NCBI GenBank assembly: GCA_964390595.1 | Contig: CAYMIA010000003.1 | Coordinates: 17,727-81,726, forward strand | Length of the DNA stretch: 64,000 nucleotides | Source: an uncultured Gammaproteobacteria bacterium | Lineage (GTDB): Bacteria; Patescibacteriota; Microgenomatia; Daviesbacterales; UBA10151 | Reading direction: 5' to 3' | The notes under the pieces: model-generated | What the model was told of the DNA's origin: nothing | Databases searched by the model: none | The model's input: only the letters and a program-made list of their open reading frames with translations | Program-made: the position numbers and the translations under genes | Shown here: in pieces, positions 29,410-60,097 of the stretch | Layout of the letters: every line of letters begins with the position of its first letter | Position numbering within the stretch: the stretch's first letter is position 1

Positions 29410-30293
29410 TTGGCTTGGATTAAAGATTTAAAAAGCGTGACATTTTCTTTGTCCGGACCATTATCTGCAAACCCGGGCACCTCTAGGATAAAAGGAATAT
29501 TGCTAAGTTTTGGATGGTTGACCATGTTCTCAAACCCTTCCATGCCAATCAAACCTTCACCAATATTCTCATGCCTGTCCCGGTTGGATTTATATTCAGT
29601 TTTAGAATCATTGGCATGGATCGCCACTAAGTTTTGTAGTCCAATCTCCTGATCAAACTCTTCTAAAACATCCTGCAACCCCACTAAAGTTTTAACATCA
29701 TACCCAGCCGCAAAAGCATGTTGAGTATCCAGGCAAACTTTGAGCCTTGGGTCATTGACTGTCTTTAGAATTTTCCCAAACTCCGAAAAACTTGATCCGA
29801 CTGCTCCTCCTGCCCCAGCAGAATTCTCTAAAATTAACTGAATGTTGTCATCCTTGACCCGATTGAGGATCTCAACTAGGCTTTGGACAATCTGCTTTTC
29901 CACAGTCTCAAATCCCGCACCCTTATGGGACCCAGGATGAAATATGACCCCTTGCACACCTAACTTGACTGCCATATTCAGGGCATAAATCAGCCAATCA
30001 ATACTTTTTTGGACATGGACAGGATTAGTACTTGCTAGGTTAATTAAATAAGTGCCATGAATAAAATTTGGCCCAATTCCAGCCTCTTTAATCTTTAATC
30101 TGTAATCATTAATCTCTTGATCAGAGTGCTTGTTTTGAAACCACTGCTGGGGTGGTGAAATAAAAATCTGGGTACACTCCGCCCCAATCTCCTGGGCTTT
30201 TGCCACACTTCTTGACAGCTCAACCGCTGCACTAACATGCGCTCCAATCTTTGGCATGACAAGAGTATATACTACTCCGTAGTCCTTCTCCAA
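29406..30293 (-). CDS. nfo: Endonuclease IV (AP endonuclease family 2)
   Basis: MPKIGAHVSAA N-terminus. H/D/E metal-ligand positions (HPGSH, LENSAG, CLDTQHAFAAGYD). Confidence 0.8.
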   Translation of the reverse strand: MEKDYGVVYTLVMPKIGAHVSAAVELSRSVAKAQEIGAECTQIFISPPQQWFQNKHSDQEINDYRLKIKEAGIGPNFIHGTYLINLASTNPVHVQKSIDWLIYALNMAVKLGVQGVIFHPGSHKGAGFETVEKQIVQSLVEILNRVKDDNIQLILENSAGAGGAVGSSFSEFGKILKTVNDPRLKVCLDTQHAFAAGYDVKTLVGLQDVLEEFDQEIGLQNLVAIHANDSKTEYKSNRDRHENIGEGLIGMEGFENMVNHPKLSNIPFILEVPGFADNGPDKENVTLFKSLIQAK

Positions 30294-33369: not shown

Positions 33370-33415
33370 GAATCAAGTATATCGTCCCCATATACTACAT
33401 ACCATATACTAAATA

Positions 33416-36082
33416 CTACTCTGATGCGCCTTCAGCGGCCTTTTTCTCAATTTCAGCCTCAGAGATCTCTTTTGAGGACACTACAGTTGCTGCCACCACC
33501 GCTTCCCCACCTCTCATTCTCATTAAAATGACACCTTGAGTCTGTCTTTGCAAAGTTGGGACATCTTTAATATTTAGCTTAATCAGTTGGCCCTTGTTAG
33601 ATGTCAGAACCAATGTATCGGCCTCTTCATCAACTATTTGAGCAGTTACAATCTGGCCAGTTTTGTCAGTCACCTGAGCTGCTTTGATTCCAGATCCGCC
33701 CCTACCCTGCTTTTTCCAAGCCACAATTTTTGTTTTCTTACCTAAACCGTTCTCCATCACCACCAACACATCTCTATTGTCATCTTTGACCAAATTCATC
33801 GACACAACTTCATCCCCCTTCTCAAGCATAATCCCTCTGACTCCGGAGGTATCCCGGTGGGTTCCCCGGACTTGAGACTCAGAGAAACGGATTGACTGTC
33901 CCCTTCTGGAAATAATAATGACATCATCGTTGCCAAATGTTGGCACCACCCATCTAAGTTGATCTCCTGCATCCAGATTAATAGAGATTAAGCCATTTTT
34001 ACGGATATTAGCGTACTCTTCAATTGCTGTCTTTTTAACATTTCCCTGTTTGGTACACATAAAGAGGAATTTAGTTGGATCCTTCACCCGGTTAGTCAAA
34101 ATTGCTGTCACCTTCTCACCTTGCTCAACGTTTACCAAATTAACAACTGCTTGACCTTTGGCGATTCTGGAGGACTCAGGAATCTCCCAAACTTTAATCT
34201 GGAAAACCCGGCCGCGGTCAGTAAAAAATAAGATATTATCCAAAGTTTTAGTATAGAAAATATGCGATACTGCATCTTCTTCTTTGGTGGTCATTCCGGA
34301 GACACCTTTGCCACCTCTATTCTGAGTTCTGAATGTGCTAGGAGCCTGTCTTTTGATATATCCATTCTCAGTTATTGTCACAATAGTTGTTTCATCAGCG
34401 ACCAAATCTTCTTCTGAAAACTCCCCCACTTTCTGTTTATAAACCCGGGTTCTTCTCTCTCCTCCATATTTTTCTTTGATCCTCAAAATCTCTTCCTTGA
34501 TCACCTGCAAAATCTTTTCCGGGTGTGCTAATAAATCTTCCAAATAGGCGATCTCTTCTCTGATCATTCTCAGTTCATCTTCGATCTTTTGGCGTTCCAA
34601 AGCAGCCAACCGCCTCAGCTGCATATCTAAAATTGCAACTGCCTGAAGTTCTGACAGCTTAAATTTCTCCATCAAGTTAACCTTAGCCTCTTCTTGGTCT
34701 TTAGAAGCGCGGATGGTTTGAATGACTGCATCGATATTATCTACCGCGATCTTTAATCCTTCCAAGATATGTTCTCTATTTCTGGCCTCAAGCAGATCGT
34801 ATTCACTACGCCTCCTCACTATCACCTGTCTGTGACGGATAAACTCCTCAAGAATTCTTTTAAGTGGCATTGTATGGGGCACTCCATCAGAGAGTGCAAC
34901 CATATTGACATTAAAAACTGACTGCAACGCAGTATGTTTGTAGAGATTGTTTAGAACTGATTGGGGCTTGGCATCACGCTTTAGTTCAATTGTAATCCTC
35001 ATCCCTTTTCGGTCTGACTCATCTCTTAAATCAGCGATACCCTCAATTTTTTTGTCTTTAACCAGGTCAGCAATCCGGCCAATTAATGTCGCCTTATTAA
35101 CTTGGTAAGGTAACTCCGTGACTATAATGTCAAACCGCCCACTTTTGGTTTCCTCAATCTCGGCTTTGGCCCGCATCACAATCCGCCCCTTGCCTGTAGC
35201 ATAAGCTAAGGTAATCTCTGAGGCATCATAAATTGAGGCTCCAGTTGGGAAATCAGGCCCCTTAATAAACTTCATCAAATCTTCGGTGGTAGCAACTGAA
35301 CTAAATTGATCTTGAATAATTCCAGCTGGATTCTCAGCATTGATAGCATGTAAAATTTCGACAGCATCAGTGCTTTCAGTCGGAGGACCAGCCACATCGT
35401 CCTTCCAGGCATTTAGCTCGGCCGCTTTACCCGACTTTTGATTATCAGACCTAGTTTGCATCCCTTGGGTATCTGGGTTATCGATCATATACAAAAGAGC
35501 CTCTGTCACTTCGCCTAAGTTATGAGGCGGAATTTGAGTGGCCATTCCGACAGCAATTCCTGAGGCACCATTGAGTAAAAGAGCTGGAATTTGAGTTGGC
35601 AGCAGCGATGGTTCAACTGTAGTGCCTGAGTAGTTATCGACAAAGTCAACAGTGTTTTTATTAATATCCCGTAGTAACTCATCAGCAATTGCCGAAAGCC
35701 GGGCCTCAGTATAACGCATTGCAGCTGGCGAATCTCCATCAACTGATCCAAAGTTTCCCTGCCCATCCACTAGCTGATATCTCATTGAAAAATCTTGAGC
35801 CATCCGCACCATCGCCTCGTAAACTGGCGCATCTCCATGAGGGTGATAATTTTTCAAAACCTCACCCACCACTGCAGCACTCTTTTGGTATCGGCTTGTG
35901 TGATGCAAATTTTGCTGGTGCATCGCATAAATAATCCTGCGCTGAACTGGTTTTAATCCATCCCGGACGTCTGGGAGCGCCCTGGCAACGATCACAGACA
36001 TCGCATAATCAAGATAAGATTTTTGCATTTCTGTGATGAGCTCGATCGGTTCTATTTTCCCAATATTATTTCCATCAGCCAT
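33416..36082 (-). CDS. gyrA: DNA gyrase subunit A (with ~57-aa insertion before the GPDFPTG motif)
   Basis: [15 protein letters not shown]. Active-site Tyr region [18 protein letters not shown]-terminal beta-pinwheel repeats. Confidence 0.9.
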
Positions 36083-43906: not shown

Positions 43907-45118
43907 ATGTCAGTTTTTACATATAAAGCCAAAGATCTACAAGGAGCCGAACACAAGGGTACTATCGAAACAGTCGACAGCCACCAAGTCGCCAGAATTT
44001 TAATAAAAAAAGGACTAGTAGTTATTTCAATCAAAGAAAAAAAAGAGGGTGAAGGGGCGGGCTTTCTTAAACGTTACTTAAACAGAGTCTCATTTAGCGA
44101 CATCGTTATTATGACCCGCCAGTTGGCCACCATGGTTGAGGCCGGATTGGTCTTGTCCGAGGCACTCGATATCCTCCAGGACCAACAGCCTAATAAGACC
44201 TTCAAGGAGGTTCTGGGAGCAGTTTCCAGAGATATTAAAAGTGGACTAGATCTAGCCTCTTCCCTAAAAAAGCACCCCACAGTTTTCCCGCCACTTTATT
44301 GTAATTTGGTTAAAGCCGGCGAGCAATCTGGAAAACTTGATTCAACTCTCTCCCAGATGGCTGTTAATTTGGAGCGGGACCGGGAATTCCGTTCCAAAAT
44401 TAGATCAGCGATGATCTATCCAGTTATCGTTTTGGTCATGATGGCTGTGGTTATGGCGGTTATGATGTTTTTTGTGATTCCTAGGCTAACCTCTCTGTAT
44501 TCTCAGTCCAGCATCGATTTACCATTACCGACCAAAATTTTGATTGGTACCTCCAACTTTTTTATTCATTTTTGGTGGCTGATGTTAATTTTTGGCGTAG
44601 TTGGCTTTATTGCGTTTAAGAAATGGGTGTCTACTCCAACAGGCCGGTTTACATTTGATTCTTACCTACTTAAAACACCCGTAGTTTCGCGTGTCATTAA
44701 GGGCACCTCGCTGACTAACTTTACTCGGACATTCGGCTTACTGACAACCGCTGGCATCCCAATTTTAGATTCCATCTCAATTGTGGGAGAGGTTATCGGC
44801 AACTCAGTTTACCGGCAAGCCCTAAAAGATTGTTTTCGTGGTGTTGAGCGGGGGTTAACCTTCTCAAGTCAGCTTGAAACAACCGGAGTTTTTCCTAAAA
44901 TAATCTCTCAAATGATCAGAGTGGGCGAAGAAACCGGTAAAGTTGACGAAGTCTCTTATAAGCTGGCCGAATATTTTGAATCAGAGACTGATAGCCTGGT
45001 TAAGAACTTAACAGTTATTATCGAGCCGCTAGTTTTAATGCTGCTCGGTATCGGTGTAGCCTTCCTAGTTCTATCTATCATCCTGCCTATTTATAAGTTG
45101 ACTACTAGCTTTAGCTAG
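43907..45118 (+). CDS. pilC: Type IV pilus platform protein (GspF/PilC family)
   Basis: Two T2SSF repeats and 3 TM helices. Confidence 0.8.
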   Translation: MSVFTYKAKDLQGAEHKGTIETVDSHQVARILIKKGLVVISIKEKKEGEGAGFLKRYLNRVSFSDIVIMTRQLATMVEAGLVLSEALDILQDQQPNKTFKEVLGAVSRDIKSGLDLASSLKKHPTVFPPLYCNLVKAGEQSGKLDSTLSQMAVNLERDREFRSKIRSAMIYPVIVLVMMAVVMAVMMFFVIPRLTSLYSQSSIDLPLPTKILIGTSNFFIHFWWLMLIFGVVGFIAFKKWVSTPTGRFTFDSYLLKTPVVSRVIKGTSLTNFTRTFGLLTTAGIPILDSISIVGEVIGNSVYRQALKDCFRGVERGLTFSSQLETTGVFPKIISQMIRVGEETGKVDEVSYKLAEYFESETDSLVKNLTVIIEPLVLMLLGIGVAFLVLSIILPIYKLTTSFS

Positions 45119-45816: not shown

Positions 45817-46755
45817 ATGGTCTGGTTTTTAATATTAGGTTTTATAGTAGGTACAATTTTAGGAAGTTTAGTTCTCTGTATCGCGAGTAGAGCACTAACA
45901 AAGGAATCGTTTTGGGGGAGGTCGTACTGTGACTTTTGTAAAAAAAAGCTCAGCTGGTACGACCTTTTTCCTATTCTATCGTTTATTTTAAACAGAGGTA
46001 AATGCCGTTATTGCCATAAAAGACTTCCCGTCGAATACATCTTAGTTGAGATTCTCTGCGGCTTAATCATCGCTTATCTATTTTCCACATCAGGTTTGGA
46101 AAAAATTAATTTGGAAAATTTCACCCTCCAAAACTTGAGTCTCCTCCCCAGCCTATTTATTCTATCCGACCTGGCCTTTAAGACCGTCTTTATCGGAGTC
46201 TTAATCGCCACCTTCATTACCGATATAAAAACCGGTCTTATTCCCGATCGGATTACCTATCCCTCAATAGCAATTGCTTTTGTATATGGAATAATTTTGA
46301 CCATCGCTAAAATTGCCTGGGCCTATTATTCGATCGCCCAGTCTTCAATTGGCCAACTCCTTTTGCCTCCCCATTCGGATTATTTTTATAGACATGCCTA
46401 TATCATGGCTACGCCAGAGCTATTTTCCCTTTTGGCAGCGGTCATAGTAACCGTTTTTTTTGCTAGCCTAATCTTTCTTACTAAAGGACGTGGTATGGGT
46501 GGAGGCGATCTGAAATTGGGAATATTTATGGGACTGGTCTTGGGTTTCCCAAATGCTATCTTAGCCATTTTAGCCGCTTTTTTGCTTGGGTCAGTCGTCG
46601 GAGTAATTTTGCTAGCCTTGCAAAGAAAAAGTTTTGGGCAAACTATCCCATTTGGACCCTTCTTAACACTCGGAGGAATTATTGCGCTGTTTTGGGGTGA
46701 TCAAATTATCACTTGGTATGTGCACACCTTTGCTATCACAGGCTCTCTTTTCTAA
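45817..46755 (+). CDS. pilD: Prepilin peptidase (A24 family)
   Basis: CDFCKKKLSWYDL...CRYCHKRL zinc motif. Polytopic, with catalytic Asp pair. Confidence 0.8.
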   Translation: MVWFLILGFIVGTILGSLVLCIASRALTKESFWGRSYCDFCKKKLSWYDLFPILSFILNRGKCRYCHKRLPVEYILVEILCGLIIAYLFSTSGLEKINLENFTLQNLSLLPSLFILSDLAFKTVFIGVLIATFITDIKTGLIPDRITYPSIAIAFVYGIILTIAKIAWAYYSIAQSSIGQLLLPPHSDYFYRHAYIMATPELFSLLAAVIVTVFFASLIFLTKGRGMGGGDLKLGIFMGLVLGFPNAILAILAAFLLGSVVGVILLALQRKSFGQTIPFGPFLTLGGIIALFWGDQIITWYVHTFAITGSLF

Positions 46756-46758
46756 AAC

Positions 46759-47256
46759 TTGTCTTTTTTTAAGAAAGCTCGTAAAGTTAGATTAATGCCC
46801 AGAGAAAAAATTCCAAATTCCAAATTCCAAATTCCAAATGAAAGAGCTTTTACTCTGGTTGAACTGCTGGTAGCGATTGTTATTATCGGGATTGTTTTTG
46901 GAGTAGTCATCACATCCAATTCAGCAATTCAAAGAGGTGCCAGAGATGCTAAGCGCCAATCTGATTTGAGAACGATTCAAGGTGCACTTGAACAATACCA
47001 TTCTGATACCAGCTTCTATCCTGATACCTTGGCGCAGATAGCTAGCCCAACAGCCTATTTAGCTCCCATCCCTTCTGCTCCAACTCCTGGCAATAATTAT
47101 TCCTATGCTCCTCTACCAGCTACCCCAACTCAATGTACTGGTAACTGTACCAGGTATTGCCTAAACGCTCAGCTAGAAAATACACCCAATCCAGTCTATT
47201 CTGGGACATGCTCCCCACTACCAGCCCCCTACAACTTCGCAGTTACATCTCCATAA
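46759..47256 (+). CDS. Pilin-like protein (prepilin-type N-terminus NERA|FTLVELLVAIVII)
   Basis: Hydrophobic pilin helix with Glu+5. Heptanucleotide repeat in the 5' region. Confidence 0.55.
   Translation: MSFFKKARKVRLMPREKIPNSKFQIPNERAFTLVELLVAIVIIGIVFGVVITSNSAIQRGARDAKRQSDLRTIQGALEQYHSDTSFYPDTLAQIASPTAYLAPIPSAPTPGNNYSYAPLPATPTQCTGNCTRYCLNAQLENTPNPVYSGTCSPLPAPYNFAVTSP
46810..46837 (+). repeat. Heptanucleotide tandem repeat (ATTCCAA)x4 at the 5' end of a pilin-like gene
   Basis: Copies at 46810-16, 46817-23, 46824-30 and 46831-37. Not a multiple of 3. Confidence 0.85.
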
Positions 47257-47297: not shown

Positions 47298-47867
47298 ATG
47301 TCCGAAGCTAGTTTCACTTTAATGAGCAAAGCTCTTAAAGGAGATCGAGGTTTCACTTTAATTGAGATATTGGTTGCCATCGCCATTATTTCTATTGTCA
47401 CAGTGACCGTGGTCCCCAATTTAAGAAAGTTCAACTCTGATCAGGAGCTCTCCAATGATACCAATAAATTAATTCAAACTTTAAGGCAAGCTCAATCAAA
47501 CGCCCAATCCGGGCTTAAATGCCTTAGATCGCCCACAGCAACTGCTTCAGCTAATTGGATGGTTGGAGCGACTAATTCGGCGACCTTCTATATTCAACCC
47601 ACATGTAATGATGCTAACTTGGGCTTGGTTGCTCCAGCTATTGAAAAAACGACTTACACGCTGACAAATACCAGAATTACAGTCAATTCAACAGGTGTTG
47701 GAACCTGCTTATTGTCTCAACCGCAAGTGACATTTACTAAAAACATTGCCGCCATTACTAACGGTTGCCAATCTAACCCGCTATTTACCCTGACTCATCT
47801 AGTAACTAACAACACTAAATCGGTTTCAGTTGATCCCGGAGGAGCGATCTATGAAAAAACCAACTAA
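47298..47867 (+). CDS. Pilin-like protein (minor pilin/pseudopilin)
   Basis: ...MSKALKGDRG|FTLIEILVAIAII. The probable real start is the internal ATG at 47322. Confidence 0.6.
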   Translation: MSEASFTLMSKALKGDRGFTLIEILVAIAIISIVTVTVVPNLRKFNSDQELSNDTNKLIQTLRQAQSNAQSGLKCLRSPTATASANWMVGATNSATFYIQPTCNDANLGLVAPAIEKTTYTLTNTRITVNSTGVGTCLLSQPQVTFTKNIAAITNGCQSNPLFTLTHLVTNNTKSVSVDPGGAIYEKTN

Positions 47868-48381
47868 CGAATTAGGCCAATCACTCTTAGAAATTACCAT
47901 CACCATTGGCATCGCAGCTCTAATAATTACCGCCTTAGTCATAACCACGCTTGTCGGATTGAAAAATAGTCAATTAGCTCAAAAACAGTCTCAAGCGACC
48001 AAGTTAGCCCAGGAAGGTATCGAGCGACTCCGGGCGCTCAAAAACAACAACATTTCAATTACCGCTGGCGGCACTACTTATTATTGGTACGGCTCTCAAG
48101 GCACCACCATTTGGTCTCAAAATATTTTTTCTGGTGGTGCTTGTCAGTACTGTTATTGGAAGTTTAATTCTACCTGTCAAACTGATTTAAATAATTGTTT
48201 GGTGGCCTCAAGTGCTGCCGATAAAACTAGCTTAGAGTCAATCGGCAGTGGCTTCTTCCGCCAAATTAAGATTGAGGATGAAAATACCATCGATCAGAAA
48301 AAAATTACCAGCACAGTTAGTTGGACCGATTCAGCTGGAGCACATAAATCGCAACTTGTGACCTATTTAACGAATTATTAA
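47830..48381 (+). CDS. Pilin-like protein (probable start 47851, MKKPTNELG|QSLLEI)
   Basis: Hydrophobic N-terminal helix with Glu+5. Confidence 0.5.
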   Translation: MIPEERSMKKPTNELGQSLLEITITIGIAALIITALVITTLVGLKNSQLAQKQSQATKLAQEGIERLRALKNNNISITAGGTTYYWYGSQGTTIWSQNIFSGGACQYCYWKFNSTCQTDLNNCLVASSAADKTSLESIGSGFFRQIKIEDENTIDQKKITSTVSWTDSAGAHKSQLVTYLTNY

Positions 48382-48382
48382 T

Positions 48383-49012
48383 ATGAACCAGAAAGGCTTC
48401 ACTCTAGCTGAAGTATTAGTCGCCCTAAGTATAATTGGGGTAATTGGCGTTATTTTAGTATCTTTTTTAACTCAAACCTTTCGCGGTTCAAGCAAAACTC
48501 AGCTAATTGGAGTAATTAAGCAAAACGGTCAATCCGCTTTAAATATTATCGATCAAGCCAGCCGTTTCGCAACTGGTGTTACCTGCACCGATGATCCCAC
48601 CTTCAATAACGCCCATCTGCTCGCGGTTCACAATCAAGATGGCACTTATACCAGATTTAGGATTTGTAACAAAACAGATGCCACATGCAACGGTTCATTC
48701 CCCAATGGCTATATATCTCAAGACACTAATTCACTACCAAGTAGCTATACCGAATCGCAATTTTGCAACCCAGTTCCCAATCCAGATATCGTGTTTAACG
48801 CTACCAACTCTTCAAAGCTAACTGATACTGATCCTAAAACAGGGGTAGCAGTGACCAACGGCTACTTTAAGGTCATCAAAAATTCAGGCAACCATGATGT
48901 TGTCAATATTTATTTTCAATTAGGTCCCGCTTCAGGAACTGGGCTCGGATTCGAAAACCAGCTTGGTTCAACCAACAGTGCAACATTTCAAACATCCGTC
49001 GTGCTAAGATAA
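48383..49012 (+). CDS. Pilin-like protein (MNQKG|FTLAEVLVALSII)
   Basis: Classic prepilin cleavage motif. Confidence 0.65.
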   Translation: MNQKGFTLAEVLVALSIIGVIGVILVSFLTQTFRGSSKTQLIGVIKQNGQSALNIIDQASRFATGVTCTDDPTFNNAHLLAVHNQDGTYTRFRICNKTDATCNGSFPNGYISQDTNSLPSSYTESQFCNPVPNPDIVFNATNSSKLTDTDPKTGVAVTNGYFKVIKNSGNHDVVNIYFQLGPASGTGLGFENQLGSTNSATFQTSVVLR

Positions 49013-49022
49013 TTATAGATCG

Positions 49023-49937
49023 ATGACAAATACCAAATACCAAATACCAAATACCAAATACCAGCATGGGCAGGTTGTGATTTTATTGCTTCTTGTCATG
49101 CTAGTTGCGCTGACCATCGGGTTAACTATCACCCAGCGCTCGCTTTCTGATGTCTCGATCTCTAGCAAAACTGAACAATCTTCCCGGGCCTTCTCAGCAG
49201 CTGAGGCTGGTATTGAAAAGGCGTTACTAAATCAAACAGCGACAAACTCCGCTGATATTGGTAACCAATCTGGCTACACAGTCACAGTCGCCAGTAATCT
49301 ACCGAGCACTGGCCAGGCCCTAGAATACCCCAAACTGAGCAAAGACAGTATCGAGCAATACTGGTTAATTGATCCAAATATGGCCCTTTCCGCACTTAAC
49401 CTACCGGCCACTACTAATCCAAGTGGTTATGACGGCGGAACCATTGATATCTACTATGAGGATCCAGCTACACCTGTGGGCGACCTAGTGGCTTTGGAAG
49501 TGAATTTAATTACTAAGGACAACACCGGTCTATACAAAAAATACCAGTATCTCTATGACGAAGATGGCGGCCGTCGAACCAACAATAACTTCATTGCACC
49601 TACAGCGTGTAGCACGTTTACAATTAATACACTCTATTCCCCTACAATCAGCACATTAGACAGAACCTTTAAGTGTAAAATTACTGGCTTCAATATTAAA
49701 CCGAGCTCTGAGACATCAATTGCTTTAAGAATTAGGCTGCTCTACTCCTCAACTTCCCAACCTGTCGCAGTGGCTCCAGCTGCCACCAAATCGCTTCCTC
49801 CTCAAGTTTCGCTGTTTACCTCAGTTGGAACCGCTGGCCAAACTCAAAAAACCGTTCAAGTGTTTAAACATGTCAAAGACGTCCCTTTCTTCTTTGACTA
49901 TGCGATCTACTCAGTTTCTCAAATTAATAAGCTCTAA
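49023..49937 (+). CDS. Pilin-like protein lacking Glu+5 (PilX/GspK-like candidate)
   Basis: ...KYQHG|QVVILLLLVMLVAL. Heptanucleotide repeat immediately after the ATG. Confidence 0.5.
   Translation: MTNTKYQIPNTKYQHGQVVILLLLVMLVALTIGLTITQRSLSDVSISSKTEQSSRAFSAAEAGIEKALLNQTATNSADIGNQSGYTVTVASNLPSTGQALEYPKLSKDSIEQYWLIDPNMALSALNLPATTNPSGYDGGTIDIYYEDPATPVGDLVALEVNLITKDNTGLYKKYQYLYDEDGGRRTNNNFIAPTACSTFTINTLYSPTISTLDRTFKCKITGFNIKPSSETSIALRIRLLYSSTSQPVAVAPAATKSLPPQVSLFTSVGTAGQTQKTVQVFKHVKDVPFFFDYAIYSVSQINKL
49027..49054 (+). repeat. Heptanucleotide tandem repeat (CAAATAC)x4 at the 5' end of a pilin-like gene
   Basis: Copies at 49027-33, 49034-40, 49041-47 and 49048-54. Confidence 0.85.
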
Positions 49938-49939
49938 AA

Positions 49940-50353
49940 ATGGATAAAAGAATTTTTTTGAATCAGAGAGGACTTTCCCTGGCCGAGGTCCTACTGGTTA
50001 TTCTGCTAATCGGTTTTATCGTTCCAGTTATTTACAACATACCTAATTCAATCCGGCTAGTTGGTAGTAGCAATAAAACTTCTTTGGCCAAAGAGATCGC
50101 TTCCAAAGCGGTCGAAGACGCCCGGATTTTAACCTATGACAATTTAGCCCTCGGGCAATCAACTATTAATGATCCCCGCATCTCCAAGCTTCCTTCAGGA
50201 GCCGGATCTCTAAATGTGACCACCTGCTCTGCCCCAGTTTGCACCAACAATGAAGAAACCAAAAATATCTCTGTGACTATAAATTGGGATGAAAACGGAG
50301 CACCCAAGTCTTTTAAGTTAACCACACTAGTTTCATCTGGAGGTTTAAGATGA
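49940..50353 (+). CDS. Pilin-like protein (NQRG|LSLAEVLLVILLIG)
   Basis: Prepilin motif with Glu+5. Confidence 0.6.
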   Translation: MDKRIFLNQRGLSLAEVLLVILLIGFIVPVIYNIPNSIRLVGSSNKTSLAKEIASKAVEDARILTYDNLALGQSTINDPRISKLPSGAGSLNVTTCSAPVCTNNEETKNISVTINWDENGAPKSFKLTTLVSSGGLR

Positions 50354-50967
50354 AGCCAAAAAATGATTTCACCTTAATGAGCAAAGCTCTTAAAGGAAAC
50401 GGAGGTTTCACTTTAATCGAGGTCCTCTTGGTTGGAGTGATCGGTTCTGTAGTAGGTATATTACTGATATCAATTTTAGTTCAAAACAATGGTTTGTTTT
50501 CTACACATAGCGCCCAAGTCGCCCAGGGCGTCGGATTAAATGACATTATCAGCGAAGTTTCCAGCTCGATTAAAACAGCCTCTTCAGTCGCCCCCAGTTA
50601 TCCATCTACAAACCCAACTTATATTAGTTCTACCAATACGCTTGTTCTGTCGATTCCTTCAATTGATGCGTCAGGCAACCCCGTTGACAACACTCTAGAT
50701 TTCCTAGTTTTTACCTCCGATAACCAAAATCAAAAGATTCTAAGAGAGCTACTTTTCCCCGATCTAAGCAGCTCCCGTAAATCTATGAATAAAGTTTTGG
50801 CAACAACCCTATCTTCAATCAATTTCTCTTATTCAGATTTAAATGGCAATCCGGTTTCTCCAAGCGTAGCCAGTAAGATCAGCTACACCGTTAACCTCTC
50901 TACCAAAGCAGGTTACGGCACAGAGGAAGCTAGTGCTAGTTCGCAGGCCATCTTAAGAAACAATTAA
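50350..50967 (+). CDS. Pilin-like protein (…MSKALKGNGG|FTLIEVLLVGVIG; probable start 50377)
   Basis: Prepilin motif. Leader is paralogous to the 47298 gene. Confidence 0.6.
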   Translation: MKPKNDFTLMSKALKGNGGFTLIEVLLVGVIGSVVGILLISILVQNNGLFSTHSAQVAQGVGLNDIISEVSSSIKTASSVAPSYPSTNPTYISSTNTLVLSIPSIDASGNPVDNTLDFLVFTSDNQNQKILRELLFPDLSSSRKSMNKVLATTLSSINFSYSDLNGNPVSPSVASKISYTVNLSTKAGYGTEEASASSQAILRNN

Positions 50968-52752
50968 ATGAAAGTTACATTAAACCATTTTCAATCAGGG
51001 CAAGTAGCGGTTATGGCTTTAATTGTCTTGGGACTCATCATTATTAATACCCTAGCCATAGTCGGGGGTTCTTTAACATTTAGTGCTAATACTAAGTATT
51101 CAACAGAGGTCTCCCAAGCAACTAATCTAGCTGAAGCCGGTATTGATAAAGCTGTGGCCTCATTAAATGCCACTGGAGGTAGCTACATTGGGGAAAGCGA
51201 AACTTTCCTGGACCCCGGCTCCTTTAGCGTCTCAGTTACCAGCAAAGACGCATCGACGGATATCATTAAGTCAACCGGTTATGTGCCAAATAAAAGTAAT
51301 CCTAAATCTAAAAGGACCATTCAAATCCAAGCTTCTAAAGGAGTTGGCATTTCATTTGTTTATGGGATGTTAGTAGGTAATGGTGGTATGTCGATGGGAA
51401 ATGGCTCCCGCATTAACGGCTCTGTTTATTCCAATGGTAATATTACGGGTGGAAATAATGAAAATATCACCGGAGATGTCTTTATTGCCAGTGGAACTCA
51501 GCCAACGGCTGATCAACAAAACGATTCTACCTGCCCCAACTGTCTGGACTTTTTCTTCGGCAAAAATATATCCGGGAACAACCAACTTGATATCGCTCAA
51601 AGTTTTAAGCCAAGCACCGGCGCTGTAATTAATAAAGTCAGCTTGAAGTTAAAAAAAATTGGCTCCCCTCCTAACCTAACTGTCCGGTTACTGGGAGATA
51701 GTAGCGGCCAGCCTAACAAAAATAACATCCTAGCTTATGGAATACTTACTGCCAATTTAGTGACCAGTCAATATGGTTTTGTCGATGTCGCTTTCACTAG
51801 CCCACCCAGCCTAACCGCTGGTACTACCTATTGGATTCTGATCGATACCTCCTCTGATAACAACAATTACTGGTCCTGGTCTGAAGATACATTACAAGGA
51901 TATACTTATGGAACTGCGATGTGGTCTCCTGATTGGCAAGTTAGTTCTCCGGTCTGGAACAGTATCAGTGGTGACTTGTCCTTCAAGACCTGGATGGGTG
52001 GTGTGGCTACCTCAATCAGTATGAACAACGGTTCAGTTATTGGTGGCAACGTTCATGCTAACACTATTAGTGGTATCACCATCAATAAAGATGCTTACTA
52101 TCAAGTTATATCTAATTCCACAGTAGTTGGCACCTCTCATCCCAACTCCACTGACCCGGCCTCAATTGCCATGCCTATCTCTGAAGGCAACATCCTCAAA
52201 TGGCAGGAAGATGCTGAGGCCTACGGAGTCACAACTGGTGATATCACCGGTTGTCCGGCTAGAATGGGACCAGGAAAAATTATTGGCAATGTCACTACCT
52301 CAAACAGCTGCACCATCACAGTGACTACCCCAATCTTTATCACTGGTAATTTAACCTTTGGCAACTCAGCTGTATTTCAGATGGACCCTAATTTAGGATC
52401 CTCGTCTGGTGTAGTTATAGTTAATGGAACCACTATCTTTCAAAATTCAGATAATTTGCTTGGCACCGGGCAACCAGGTAGCTTCCTCACTCTTCTTTCA
52501 GCCTATAATTCTCAAACTCAAGGGGGGGACGCCATCAATACTGGAAACAGTTCAATAACAGGCATTTTATATGCTCCTTTAGGGATAATAACTCTGGCAA
52601 ACAACGCCAACTTCAAAGAAGCAGTGGCTTGGCAGATTAATATGGGTACAGGGACGACCTTAACTTATGATTCAGGCTTGATTAGTACCTTCTTTTCCAC
52701 CGGACCCGGAGGGTCATTCTCGATAGTTAAAGGTACCTATCAGATCAAATAA
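50968..52752 (+). CDS. Large pilin-like/pilus-associated protein with N-terminal pilin-type helix and Asn/Gly-rich beta-helix-like repeats
   Basis: FQSG|QVAVMALIVLGLII followed by GNGGMSMGNGSRINGSVYSNGNITGGNNENITGDVFIASG-type repeats. Confidence 0.45.
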   Translation: MKVTLNHFQSGQVAVMALIVLGLIIINTLAIVGGSLTFSANTKYSTEVSQATNLAEAGIDKAVASLNATGGSYIGESETFLDPGSFSVSVTSKDASTDIIKSTGYVPNKSNPKSKRTIQIQASKGVGISFVYGMLVGNGGMSMGNGSRINGSVYSNGNITGGNNENITGDVFIASGTQPTADQQNDSTCPNCLDFFFGKNISGNNQLDIAQSFKPSTGAVINKVSLKLKKIGSPPNLTVRLLGDSSGQPNKNNILAYGILTANLVTSQYGFVDVAFTSPPSLTAGTTYWILIDTSSDNNNYWSWSEDTLQGYTYGTAMWSPDWQVSSPVWNSISGDLSFKTWMGGVATSISMNNGSVIGGNVHANTISGITINKDAYYQVISNSTVVGTSHPNSTDPASIAMPISEGNILKWQEDAEAYGVTTGDITGCPARMGPGKIIGNVTTSNSCTITVTTPIFITGNLTFGNSAVFQMDPNLGSSSGVVIVNGTTIFQNSDNLLGTGQPGSFLTLLSAYNSQTQGGDAINTGNSSITGILYAPLGIITLANNANFKEAVAWQINMGTGTTLTYDSGLISTFFSTGPGGSFSIVKGTYQIK

Positions 52753-52787: not shown

Positions 52788-53828
52788 ATGGCTGCCAAAA
52801 ACGTCGTTGGGTTGGATATTGGTTTTTCTTCAACCAAAATCGTTGTCTTATCTCACAAAGAAAAACCTCCGAGAATCGTCTCTCTAGGCTCAATTGCCAC
52901 TCCTCAGCCGGGTATCATCTCAGATGCCGACCTAGATTTGGACGCTGTCGCCCAAGCTCTAAAAAGTCTGGTCAGCGAAGTCAAAATCCCAGGAAAAGAC
53001 GTTGTTATTGCCTTGCCTGAGTCCAGAATTTTTACCCGAGTAGTTTATGACCTACCCTACCTCACCAATGACGAACTATCTCAAGCCATTAAATACGCAG
53101 CCGAAGAATTTGTGCCGATGTCGATTAATGATGTTAATTTAAATTATCAGGTGATTTTTAGATCACCTCAAAAAGGACCCAAAAGCCGGACCATTGTTCT
53201 AGTCATTGCCACTCCCAAAGCACTCCTTGAAAAATACTTAAAAGTTTTAACCATGGCTGATTTAAAGCCCGTAGCTATCGAAACAGAGCTTATCGCTGCC
53301 TCGAGATCTCTGGTTGGCAATAACCCCTATTCCCCCACTACCCTAATCATCAATCTCGGATCAACCACTACTGACTACGCAGTCGTTTCTGATGGTTTTA
53401 TCTTAATGACCAGATCAATTGCCACTGGCGGAAATGCCCTCACGCGGGCGATCGCCCAAACCTTTAACTTTGAACTAGTTCAGGCTGAAGAATATAAGAA
53501 AGTTTATGGGCTGCTCGAAGATCAACTTGAAGGTAAATTATTTCAAGCCCTCAAACCAATTTTTGATGTTATTGTCTTAGAAGCCAAAAGAGTGATCCAG
53601 GCTCATGAAGCCCAAAATCCGGATAAAGCAGTTAAAAGAGTCATCCTCACAGGAGGGGGAGCACAATTACCAGGAGTCGTACTTTATTTCGCTAATTCAC
53701 TCGGACTTGAGGTCCAGGAGGCTGATCCCTGGGCGGCTGTAACTAAGGAGGATAACATTAAATCAAAACTGAATGCTAGCGCGGCACTATATTCAGTAGC
53801 TGCCGGACTTGCGCTTCGGGAAGACTAA
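52788..53828 (+). CDS. pilM: Type IV pilus assembly protein PilM (actin-like ATPase fold)
   Basis: VVGLDIGFSSTKIVVL and GGGAQLPGV motifs. Confidence 0.75.
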   Translation: MAAKNVVGLDIGFSSTKIVVLSHKEKPPRIVSLGSIATPQPGIISDADLDLDAVAQALKSLVSEVKIPGKDVVIALPESRIFTRVVYDLPYLTNDELSQAIKYAAEEFVPMSINDVNLNYQVIFRSPQKGPKSRTIVLVIATPKALLEKYLKVLTMADLKPVAIETELIAASRSLVGNNPYSPTTLIINLGSTTTDYAVVSDGFILMTRSIATGGNALTRAIAQTFNFELVQAEEYKKVYGLLEDQLEGKLFQALKPIFDVIVLEAKRVIQAHEAQNPDKAVKRVILTGGGAQLPGVVLYFANSLGLEVQEADPWAAVTKEDNIKSKLNASAALYSVAAGLALRED

Positions 53829-56091: not shown

Positions 56092-56480
56092 TTAGGAGCT
56101 TCCTCATCAGAGGATTCAGTAGGTGTCTCAGGTGTCTCAGGTGTCTCAGGTGTCTCAGGTGTCTCAGGTGTCTCAGGTTCAGCTGCTTTTGGTTCTGCTG
56201 CCGGAGTTTCAGCTTTTTCTTTTTTGGGTTTGCGAGGAGCTCGTTGCTTGGCCTCACCAACGATCCGCAAATATCCATCAGAAGGTTGGGCACCTTTTTT
56301 AATCCACTCAGCGATCCTCTCTTTGTTCAGGTTAATCTCTTTTGGTTCAGTTAGCGGATTGTAAGTACCCAGAAGCTCAATAAACCCACCTGTTCTCTTT
56401 CGGCGCTCGTCAACAACGACCACCCGGTAGAAGGGCCGCTTCTTTGCACCAATTCGCATCAATCGGATCTTTGCTGGCAT
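56088..56480 (-). CDS. rpsP: 30S ribosomal protein S16 with C-terminal (ETP)n low-complexity extension
   Basis: [42 protein letters not shown], then [19 protein letters not shown]. Confidence 0.85.
56121..56174. repeat. 9-nt tandem repeat (AGGTGTCTC)x6 inside the rpsP 3' region
   Basis: Six perfect copies read from the sequence. Confidence 0.9.
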
Positions 56481-58054: not shown

Positions 58055-60097
58055 TTAGTCTGGCGAGACGAAAGAGGCCAGATCTGCTAATTTTCCCTGC
58101 AAAGAGGGGTATTTGTCAAGTGTGGGATCATTTTGCAATAAAAGACGGGCGGAGCCTCTAGCTCTCTCAATCAGCTCCAAATCGGAAAAAGAGGCTATTT
58201 TGAGGTTAAAACGGCCTGATTGGCGCACACCGAAGATCTCGCCAGACCCTCTGATCTGCAGATCCAGTTCAGCCAGTTTTAAGCCGTTAAAAGTTTTTTC
58301 TAAGTTTTTTAATCTGGAAACTACTTGCGCCTCAGGTGTACTAGAAAATAAAAAACAGAATGATTGCTTCTCTCCCCGGCCGACCCTGCCCCGGAGTTGA
58401 TGGAGTTGAGAAAGTCCAAATCTCTCCGCCCCTTCAATTAACATGATGGTGGCATTGGGAACATCTACTCCGACTTCAACAACTGAAGTTGACACCAAAA
58501 TATCAATCACCCCCTCCTTAAAAGACTGCAACACCGCCTCCTTTTCTTTAGATTTCATCCTCCCATGCAACAGTCCCAGTTTTAAATCAGGAAAAATATC
58601 TTTTTGCAAGTTTTCAAACTCGACCTTTGCGGCTTTGGCCTGAAGAATCTCCGATTCTTCGATCAATGGGGTGACAATGTAAGCTTGGTCCCCTTCTTTA
58701 ACCTTGCCATGGATAAATTTATAAGCATCAGCCCGCTTAGCTGCTCTCACCACATGAGTTCTAACTTGTTGTCTGCCTGCTGGTACCTCATCAATAATTG
58801 AAATATCCAAATCTCCATACATAGTTAAAGCCACAGTGCGGGGTATTGGCGTAGCAGTCATGGTTAGAAAGTGTGGCACCGTCGCCTTAGATCTCAAAAC
58901 TGTTCTCTGCTCAACCCCAAATCTTTGTTGCTCATCAACAACAATCATCCCCACATTTTCGACCGCCAATTTACCTGAAATCAAAGCATGAGTCCCAACT
59001 ATCACATCAGACTCTGCTGCTTGTTTCTTACTTCCTGTATATATCCCAACCTTCATTCCCAGTGGGGTTAAAATCTTTTCCAAATTAGCAAAGTGCTGAA
59101 AAGCTAAAACCTCGGTTGGGGCCATGAAAAGTGTTCGTAAACCATTAACAAATGCAACATAGGTAATGGCTGCTGCAACCACGGTCTTGCCTGAACCCAC
59201 CTCTCCTTGAACTAAGCGGTTCATCGCGGCAGTTTTTTTCAGGTCATCACAGATCTCATCAACCACCCGCCTTTGAGCATTGGTCAATGAAAAAGGCAGC
59301 AGCTTTAAAAACTTTTCTAAATCTTTGGGGTCAATGGAAAAAGGTTTAACCACCTCCCTTTTACGCCATTCCAGCCGCGCCTTTTGGGTCGCTAGCTGAA
59401 TTAAAAACAGCTCATCAAAACCTAGCCTGTCTCTGGCCTCTTTGGCCTCATTTAAATTCTCTGGAAAATGAATTTTTTGCAAAGACTCTCTTAAAGGCAA
59501 CATATTTAAACGAACCTCGTCAGGCAAAAAGTCCACTTCCTCATCAATTACTTGAGGCAGGATTGAGGCAATTTTTGCCCGCAGCCATTTAGATGTCAGC
59601 CCAAAAGTCTCTGAATAAACAGGCACCAACCTCCCAGTATGCAAATTCTTGTCCATTGTCAATTGTCCACTGTCCATTGATATCTTCTCCCAGACTGGAG
59701 CAACGATCGAGATCTTGCTTTTATATTTGCTAACTTTGCCAGAAATTTGCAGTCTATCTCCTGGTTGGATTGATTTGGTTAAGTAAGATTGGTTAAACCA
59801 AGTCAGCTCAATGGGCGCTGTCCCATCATTAAAAAGTGCTTGGGTCAAAACTTTTCTTGACCTGGTATAGATATTTTTGATTGACCAGATCTCCCCTTGC
59901 AAGGTGATCTTCTCCCCAATTTTAGCCTCATTTATTGGCGCAATTTGGCTAAAATCTTCATACCTAAATGGGTAGTGGTTAATTAAATCAGCCACTGTTA
60001 AAAGTCCTAAAAGCTCGAGTTTTTTAGCAAAGGCATAACCTATACCTGGAACTGTCCGAAGCGATGTTGATAGGTTCATTGATGTATTAGACCACAT
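58055..60097 (-). CDS. recG: ATP-dependent DNA helicase RecG
   Basis: Wedge/OB N-terminus. GEVGSGKTVVAA Walker A. DEQQRFGV. Helicase C motifs. Confidence 0.85.
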   Translation of the reverse strand: MWSNTSMNLSTSLRTVPGIGYAFAKKLELLGLLTVADLINHYPFRYEDFSQIAPINEAKIGEKITLQGEIWSIKNIYTRSRKVLTQALFNDGTAPIELTWFNQSYLTKSIQPGDRLQISGKVSKYKSKISIVAPVWEKISMDSGQLTMDKNLHTGRLVPVYSETFGLTSKWLRAKIASILPQVIDEEVDFLPDEVRLNMLPLRESLQKIHFPENLNEAKEARDRLGFDELFLIQLATQKARLEWRKREVVKPFSIDPKDLEKFLKLLPFSLTNAQRRVVDEICDDLKKTAAMNRLVQGEVGSGKTVVAAAITYVAFVNGLRTLFMAPTEVLAFQHFANLEKILTPLGMKVGIYTGSKKQAAESDVIVGTHALISGKLAVENVGMIVVDEQQRFGVEQRTVLRSKATVPHFLTMTATPIPRTVALTMYGDLDISIIDEVPAGRQQVRTHVVRAAKRADAYKFIHGKVKEGDQAYIVTPLIEESEILQAKAAKVEFENLQKDIFPDLKLGLLHGRMKSKEKEAVLQSFKEGVIDILVSTSVVEVGVDVPNATIMLIEGAERFGLSQLHQLRGRVGRGEKQSFCFLFSSTPEAQVVSRLKNLEKTFNGLKLAELDLQIRGSGEIFGVRQSGRFNLKIASFSDLELIERARGSARLLLQNDPTLDKYPSLQGKLADLASFVSPD

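Follow-up and report, generated by a model that had tools for sequence, protein, structure and literature searches.

A heptanucleotide tract in the leader of a PilX-like gene

The window, the whole stretch of 64,000 nucleotides that we analysed, contains a cluster of type IV pilus genes, in which two pilin genes carry perfect heptanucleotide tracts in their leader-coding DNA. The cluster comprises the following features:

43907-45118: gene for a PilC-like T2SSF protein
45256 onward: pilin gene
45817-46755, plus strand: prepilin (type IV leader) peptidase gene (Pfam A24_N_bact 1.1e-21, Peptidase_A24 4.8e-10)
46795, 47298 and 48383 onward: pilins with N_methyl motifs
46795-47256, plus strand: the first of these, the pilin gene with the sister tract (Pfam N_methyl E=3.3e-8)
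46808-46839, plus strand: sister tract (AAATTCC)x4.57 (TRF, 100% matches)
47830 onward: pilin-like ORF without Pfam motif
49023-49937, plus strand: PilX-like minor pilin gene, 304 aa (Pfam PilX_N E=2e-5), with further pilin-like genes coming next
49023-49025, plus strand: ATG start of the PilX-like gene (ORF list and frame analysis)
49023-49070, plus strand: leader-coding segment, Met1-Gly16, MTNTKYQIPNTKYQHG (delimited by the invariant Gly16-Gln17 of orthologs)
49027-49063, plus strand: perfect heptanucleotide tract (CAAATAC)x5.29, 37 nt (TRF, 100% matches, score 74)
49940 and 50350 onward: two further pilin-like genes
50968-52752: large pilus-associated gene
52788-53828: PilM gene

The PilX_N match of the 49023-49937 gene, at 24.9 bits, lies just under the cut-off of 25.5. 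The gene has 880 homologs, several of them named 'pilus assembly PilX N-terminal domain-containing protein [Candidatus Daviesbacteria]', and its nearest relative is 49% identical. By these homologs, the host is a member of Candidatus Daviesbacteria (CPR, Microgenomates), an uncultured groundwater bacterium.

Read directly, positions 49023-49070 are ATG A (CAAATAC)x5 CA GCAT GGG. An earlier note on this DNA had placed the start of a tandem heptamer at 49027, one nucleotide past the ATG, and had given the translation as MTNTKYQIPNTKYQHGQVV; both hold. Its count of four copies ending at 49054 was too low, TRF giving 5.3 copies at 100% identity over 49027-49063. The tract contains no stop codon in any of the three frames, and in the frame of the gene it encodes TNTKYQIPNTKYQ, residues 2-14 of a 16-residue leader. 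The chance expectation for a 21-nt, three-unit pattern, taken from shuffled versions of the window, is 0.01. At 37 nt, the tract is the second longest of 70 non-redundant tracts in related pilus loci.

Upstream of Gly16-Gln17, the ATG at 49023 is the sole canonical in-frame start, and none lies inside the tract. The leader MTNTKYQIPNTKYQHG is short and charged, ends in Gly and is followed by the hydrophobic helix QVVILLLLVMLVALTIGL of about 20 residues, the arrangement of a class III leader. Gly16 and Gln17 are invariant in the 51 aligned orthologs, and the hydrophobic helix then follows. The alignment fits a class III leader that is presumably removed by prepilin peptidase after Gly16; the peptidase encoded at 45817-46755 is the enzyme expected to do so. 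The PilX-like pilin has Leu rather than Glu at position (+5) and gives no Pfam match to the N_methyl motif; tip subunits of the GspK/PilX class also have no Glu5. Whereas the ortholog leaders have a median length of 6 residues, typically M-K-N-Q-K-G, the leader here has 16, and the extra length is accounted for by the tract. In about 105 of 118 orthologs, the leader is short and free of repeats.

The sister tract at 46808-46839 begins 13 nt after the ATG at 46795 and is in frame with it. The leader of this pilin reads MPREKIPNSKFQIPNERA and continues into FTLVELLVAIV. In the same rotation, the two units differ by a single base (AAATACC and AAATTCC), as the earlier note had observed. The flanks of the two tracts are unrelated to each other, and the unit CAAATAC has no other occurrence in 1.77 Mb of related pilus loci.

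Logan contig L173 (SRR9179559), an independent assembly, reproduces positions 47827-49057 of the window with 100% identity, its end falling exactly at nucleotide 31 of the tract. The tract is therefore no artefact of a single assembly. With k presumably 31 in that assembly, we attribute the end of L173 to a graph cycle caused by the 37-nt period-7 tract, and we rejected it on that assumption as a sign of polymorphism. An exact-protein look-up of the 304-aa gene returned no record; that of neighbouring genes returned short contigs only, from two runs, none of which spans positions 49027-49063.

Period 7 is in excess across related pilus loci

To place the tract in its lineage, we pooled related pilus loci, 80 each from species-representative genomes and metagenomes (1.77 Mb; loci and contigs are cited below by L numbers). 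For each period, we counted the perfect tandem repeats with three or more copies, using a second-order Markov simulation as control:

Period 4: observed 33, simulated 41
Period 5: observed 2, simulated 3
Period 6: observed 3, simulated 0.4
Period 7: observed 82, simulated 0.0
Period 8: observed 2, simulated 0.0
Period 9: observed 2, simulated 0.0

Period 7 exceeds both its neighbouring periods and chance. With mismatches allowed, TRF reports about 262-269 period-7 arrays in 1.57 Mb of non-redundant sequence, compared to 38 of period 6 and 14 of period 8. The 70 non-redundant perfect tracts comprise 47 distinct units, some of them GC-rich, and their copy numbers are small and similar: 42 of the 70 measure 29-34 nt, usually four to five units.

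Heptamer repeats are over-represented in many bacteria, for which slippage of the polymerase at 7 nt is the proposed explanation (PMC4692102; PMC4679880). Xanthomonas GGGAATC arrays have a mode of four units (PMC4692102), Beggiatoaceae TAACTGA occurs in sets of 2-6 copies (PMC4679880), and further over-represented heptamers are GGGGA(C/T)T in Nostoc and three in the cyanobacterium Calothrix PCC7601 (PMC4692102; PMC4679880). Our tracts resemble these families in that period 7 is favoured over other long periods, copy numbers are small, some inverted pairs occur, turnover between relatives is fast and no function has been assigned. The known families, however, have one or a few units each and are mostly intergenic, whereas the tracts described here, with 47 units in 70 tracts, belong to a compact CPR genome, are mostly translated in frame and lie mainly in pilin leaders.

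Our preferred reading of the tract at 49027 is that it is a tolerated, frame-preserving product of heptamer slippage acting across the lineage, situated in a leader that is presumably cleaved off. We consider this somewhat more probable than all other readings together (about 0.55). The narrow peak of tract lengths is present in non-coding DNA too, which we count against slippage and tolerance.

Tracts occur in pilin leaders and in housekeeping genes

About half of all tracts lie in the leader-coding DNA of pilin-like genes, inside coding sequence; in these pilus loci, the over-represented heptamers are thus not mainly intergenic. Other tracts lie just upstream of the pilM start codon or in intergenic spacers. 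Within other coding sequences, in-frame tracts are found at two sites in trmD, both in variable loops, and in the prepilin peptidase gene, between its two domains; a perfect in-frame tract lies within recG of L084, at 13883. The window itself contains three decayed tracts, all outside the pilus genes:

30085-30115, minus strand: decayed 31-nt tract, in frame in an AP-endonuclease-family gene (TRF 4.4 copies, 83%; AP_endonuc_2 5.3e-49)
33388-33418, no strand assigned: decayed tract of heptamers or 14-mers at the stop codon of gyrA, within the spacer that precedes the next gene on the minus strand (TRF)
59649-59679, minus strand: decayed 31-nt tract (TGGACAA-type on the coding strand), in frame in recG (TRF 4.4 copies, 83%; RecG Pfam domains)

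The recG tract of the window lies directly upstream of a conserved HTGRLVP / LHTGRLVP motif, as does the perfect tract at L084 13883.

The window also holds a perfect 9-nt repeat, (AGGTGTCTC)x6.4, at 56121-56178 on the minus strand. It encodes (PET)n near the C-terminal end of an ORF, is in frame and is unrelated to the heptamers.

TrmD is essential in studied bacteria. Tracts in housekeeping genes such as trmD cannot be on/off switches. We therefore take the tracts as a whole to be a general mutational feature of the lineage, retained at sites that tolerate an in-frame insertion. Because this type of tract is found lineage-wide and also in frame in trmD and recG, the presence of two tracts in one pilus locus is not special.

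The trmD genes of about 60 loci, on the minus strand, encode a loop between the GGGxGM and ILxSASG motifs that varies from about 5 to more than 40 residues. This loop repeatedly holds live or decayed heptamer tracts with differing units (for example, L011 6509, L012 13231 and L072 13443). Heptamer expansion thus appears to drive indel evolution of an essential enzyme.

By our estimate, leaders make up a few percent of the sequence, compared to about half of the tracts; this concentration may reflect more than tolerance.

The reading frame is kept in leader tracts

The tract lies in the 5' coding region and its unit is not a multiple of three, as in contingency genes. Modelling of copy numbers indicates that the full protein is made with 2, 5 or 8 units only, and that other unit numbers yield peptides of 16-44 aa. 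One unit more or less would thus cut the protein short, and the tract could therefore act as a switch. The earlier note had suggested contingency loci for both tracts, which together could give four states of pilus composition. On such a reading, slipped-strand mispairing would alter the number of units, shift the frame and toggle the minor pilin, and together with the sister tract this would generate several pilus compositions, with phage or host-attachment pressure as the selecting force. In keeping with such a contingency locus, the 7-nt unit directly follows the ATG, the repeat is free of mismatches and ranks second in length among 70 tracts, the product belongs to a surface organelle, and pilin leaders concentrate the tracts. 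Moreover, units are identical within an array and different between species, which implies ongoing slippage.

The closest parallel is pglE of Neisseria, whose phase variation through a heptanucleotide repeat is documented and shows that such a tract can switch (PMC7157529). There too, a 7-nt repeat lies directly past the ATG in the coding region of a pilus-related gene, which functions in pilin glycosylation, and the repeat units must be close to identical because the PglE peptide MKHQTPNTKHQTPNTKHQIPNTKY is nearly the same as TNTKYQIPNTKYQ. The two cases differ in three respects. The pglE product is a cytoplasmic glycosyltransferase, whereas the tract here encodes part of a prepilin leader; ON and OFF alleles of pglE are both common among isolates, whereas all alleles seen here are ON; and the type of tract found here is spread across the genome, housekeeping genes included.

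The alleles themselves argue against a contingency locus. A canonical start, located upstream of the tract or inside it, is in frame with 34 of the 36 perfect leader tracts, compared to the one third expected for a random frame. In the remaining two, ATA takes the place of the GTG or ATG start of orthologs. No out-of-frame (OFF) allele was found among the 36; such comparisons use consensus assemblies, in which a minority of OFF cells does not show. Two truncated-looking ortholog calls (P0046 and P0071), which begin past the leader, were considered as possible OFF alleles and rejected, both being in frame from an upstream start. At analogous loci in five independent assemblies of one population, copy numbers are identical, (AATTCTC)4.86 and (GAATTAT)3.14, and the cluster members of ten orthologs contain no informative length variants. 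Close strains differ through replacements that preserve the frame, not through single-unit changes (see below).

Nor are the tracts confined to surface genes, or longer or purer in them: trmD and recG hold the same kind of tract, and TRF gives median copy numbers of 4.5 for leader tracts and 4.4 for others, of which 25% and 18%, respectively, are perfect. Five units are also few beside characterised phase-variable tracts. In Neisseria, the (CTCTT)n repeat in the signal-peptide coding region of opa and the poly-G tract of pilC are longer and vary between isolates. A repeat of the opa type, as presumably our tract, sits in DNA that encodes a cleaved N-terminal signal, and in-frame unit numbers therefore give the same mature protein, while out-of-frame numbers silence the gene. 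Here, by comparison, the signal is a class III (prepilin) leader, and copy-number variation was not found. In Haemophilus influenzae hmw1A and hmw2A, a 7-bp repeat sets the level of a surface adhesin (PMC4235727); those repeats lie in the promoter, act on transcription and have many copies, whereas ours is in the coding region.

What stands of the contingency proposal is thus the 5' coding site, the non-triplet unit and the likeness to pglE. The lineage-wide distribution of the tracts, the lack of OFF alleles among the 36 perfect leader tracts, the constant copy number in five assemblies and the unremarkable length and purity of leader tracts speak against the remainder, and we regard a selected contingency function as rather unlikely. 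The tract at 49027 is a possible phase-variation site, not a demonstrated one.

The two ATA starts are at L039 8340-8346 and L067 8363-8369, where the ATA overlaps an upstream stop codon as ATAA. These genes either use a non-canonical coupled start or are silenced.

Some units contain ATG or GTG (L072 8317-8348, L038 8268-8298 and L002 30-80) so that the array has a start codon whichever frame is read; the genes concerned would remain open to translation at any copy number.

RNA structure and leader peptide

A function at the level of the RNA or the peptide would provide a different rationale for the tract. As a G-free, unstructured stretch, it could open the initiation region or bind a cold-shock-type protein at each heptamer; alternatively, the longer leader could alter processing. 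The tract is fully unpaired in the predicted mRNA fold and G is missing from many leader units, which fits this idea, and binding of CspB to heptamer direct repeats has been discussed for the TAACTGA repeats (PMC4679880). Some composite modules fold as periodic hairpins (for example, in L017, z = -3.2), but the fold of the window region has z = -0.73 and gives no structural signal. Most orthologs have no tract at all, and the units vary greatly and are in part GC-rich. Only a minority of tracts have an inverted partner, 12 of 59 compared to 5 of 59 in the control. We therefore consider a selected RNA or peptide function very improbable. The idea that tracts act through hairpins with inverted partners was rejected on the same counts, the tract in the window having no such partner.

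The earlier note had also suggested that the two window tracts reflect an unusual leader peptide shared between pilins. A query with repeated KYQIPNT against 5.8 billion proteins found no pilin family; the matches were ORFs of 35-86 residues from other phyla and the N-terminus of gonococcal PglE, MKHQTPNTKHQTPNTKHQIPNTKY. Together with the short, repeat-free leaders of most orthologs, this led us to reject a conserved 'KYQIPN' leader family. The KYQIPN peptide is simply what an AT-rich, stop-free heptamer encodes.

Leaders turn over rapidly between close strains

Leader sequences diverge between close strains faster than by neutral drift. L135 and L066 are 99.35% identical over 6.6 kb, and 34 of their 45 differences fall within 125 nt (671-795 in L135, 1438-1562 in L066) that correspond to the start of the PilX-like gene. 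Here, (AATTTAC)4.3 is swapped for an imperfect CTATCAG-type tract that occupies the same 30 nt, and both versions are in frame. The PilX-like leader is likewise the most divergent segment between L157 and L160 (99.3% identical) and between L150 and L154 (98.4% identical). We considered mutagenesis of the diversity-generating-retroelement type for L135 and L066 and rejected it after inspecting the alignment, in which the differences extend beyond adenines.

Related leader modules are also found in different genes. The pilin gene that carries the composite module (GTCTACC)n-GCGATT-(CGGAAGT)n, about 65 nt long, differs among L017, L045, L060 and L079, and a variant of the module is present in L076. 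In L045 (8291-8390) and L079 (8927-9020), whose genomes are 93% identical, it lies in the leaders of neighbouring pilin genes, and the corresponding empty sites are clean, with no proto-unit. The (AATTCTC)4.86 leader is found together with its upstream tract in different genes of L007 and L076. Within the window, the leaders at 47298-47393 and 50350-50450, in genes 3 kb apart, have identical DNA blocks of 24 and 16 nt and a common module FTLMSKALKG..GFTLIE, which suggests either that the region around the cleavage site was partially duplicated or that the paralogs underwent gene conversion. Finally, L062 (6329-6388) and L126, from one population with about 100% identity, differ by two copies of the 30-nt repeat AAATGGTTTCACCCTTATAAGCAGAGCTTC. 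This repeat encodes KGFTLISRAS just past the pilin ATG; a pseudo-cleavage site is thus polymorphic in copy number, with the frame kept.

These observations are not explained by local slippage alone. It is conceivable that leaders are exchangeable cassettes: heptamer modules would pass, by transfer or conversion, from one pilin 5' end to another in the same genome or in another strain, and leaders would become hypervariable while the frame is kept. The composite module at neighbouring genes with clean empty sites, the (AATTCTC)4.86 leader in two different genes, the tract replacement of equal length in L135 and L066, the identical blocks at 47298 and 50350, and the two-copy difference within one population all point in this direction. 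Differential loss from an ancestor with two copies would yield the same pattern, however, and the clustered differences could be ordinary recombination imports. We identified neither an enzyme nor a donor copy; CAAATAC is absent from the rest of the 1.77 Mb, and the sequences that flank the two window tracts show no relation to each other. Cassette exchange as the origin of the window tracts appears quite unlikely to us.

A broader version of this idea holds that an active process in Daviesbacteria and related Microgenomates writes or exchanges heptamer cassettes of about 30 nt, preferentially in prepilin leaders, and that the tracts of the window are its fresh products. This is speculative and, in our judgement, unlikely. 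If true, the 5' ends of pilus genes would be hypervariable between otherwise identical strains with the frame preserved, and the process would constitute a previously undescribed mechanism of localized diversification or regulation, possibly with on/off switching at low frequency.

Two further observations concern these loci. At the site that matches L045 1577, L079 carries a 77-nt intergenic insertion with two inverted heptamer arrays (ATCAGCG... / ...GACTGAT) in a hairpin-like arrangement; the close relative L045 is without this element. In addition, three contigs of the L007 population (L088-L090) end in or next to a 34-nt (AATTCTC) tract, within their first 40 nt. This tract is too short for a graph cycle at k=31, if that k was used, and heterogeneity, or a module present in two copies, may have caused the breaks.

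Discussion

We propose that the tract at 49027 arose by heptamer slippage and has been tolerated since. Replication slippage, with a preference for 7 nt, would in Daviesbacteria and related Microgenomates generate arrays, usually of four to five units or about 30 nt, which would persist wherever an in-frame, stop-free insertion of about ten residues is harmless. Such sites would be pilin leaders above all, followed by variable loops of TrmD, RecG and the prepilin peptidase, and intergenic spacers. A leader that is cleaved off would be free to vary in sequence. According to this model, the tract at 49027 would be a live heptanucleotide microsatellite, to which the N-terminal class III leader owes its added length upstream of Gly16-Gln17. 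Changes of one unit would occur and silence the gene, leaving products of 16-44 aa, but probably as a by-product rather than as a tuned switch.

Literature searches for heptamer repeats or phase variation in CPR / Patescibacteria surfaced no relevant paper. The tracts described here differ from the known families in the diversity of the units, the in-frame translation of most arrays and their concentration in prepilin leaders. Our analysis also carries a caution: phase variation should not be concluded solely from a perfect repeat past the ATG of a surface gene.

The tracts provide a clean natural example of the long-noted and unexplained excess of 7-nt repeats, here translated in frame, even in essential genes. 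Read-level metagenome data would allow tests of why the period is seven bases and why arrays have about four units. Dependence on other cells is commonly assumed for CPR bacteria, and type IV pili are believed to play a central part in how they attach and take up DNA. Should pilin leaders prove to be hot spots of repeat-driven change, this could affect how pilus composition is regulated or varied in these uncultured organisms.
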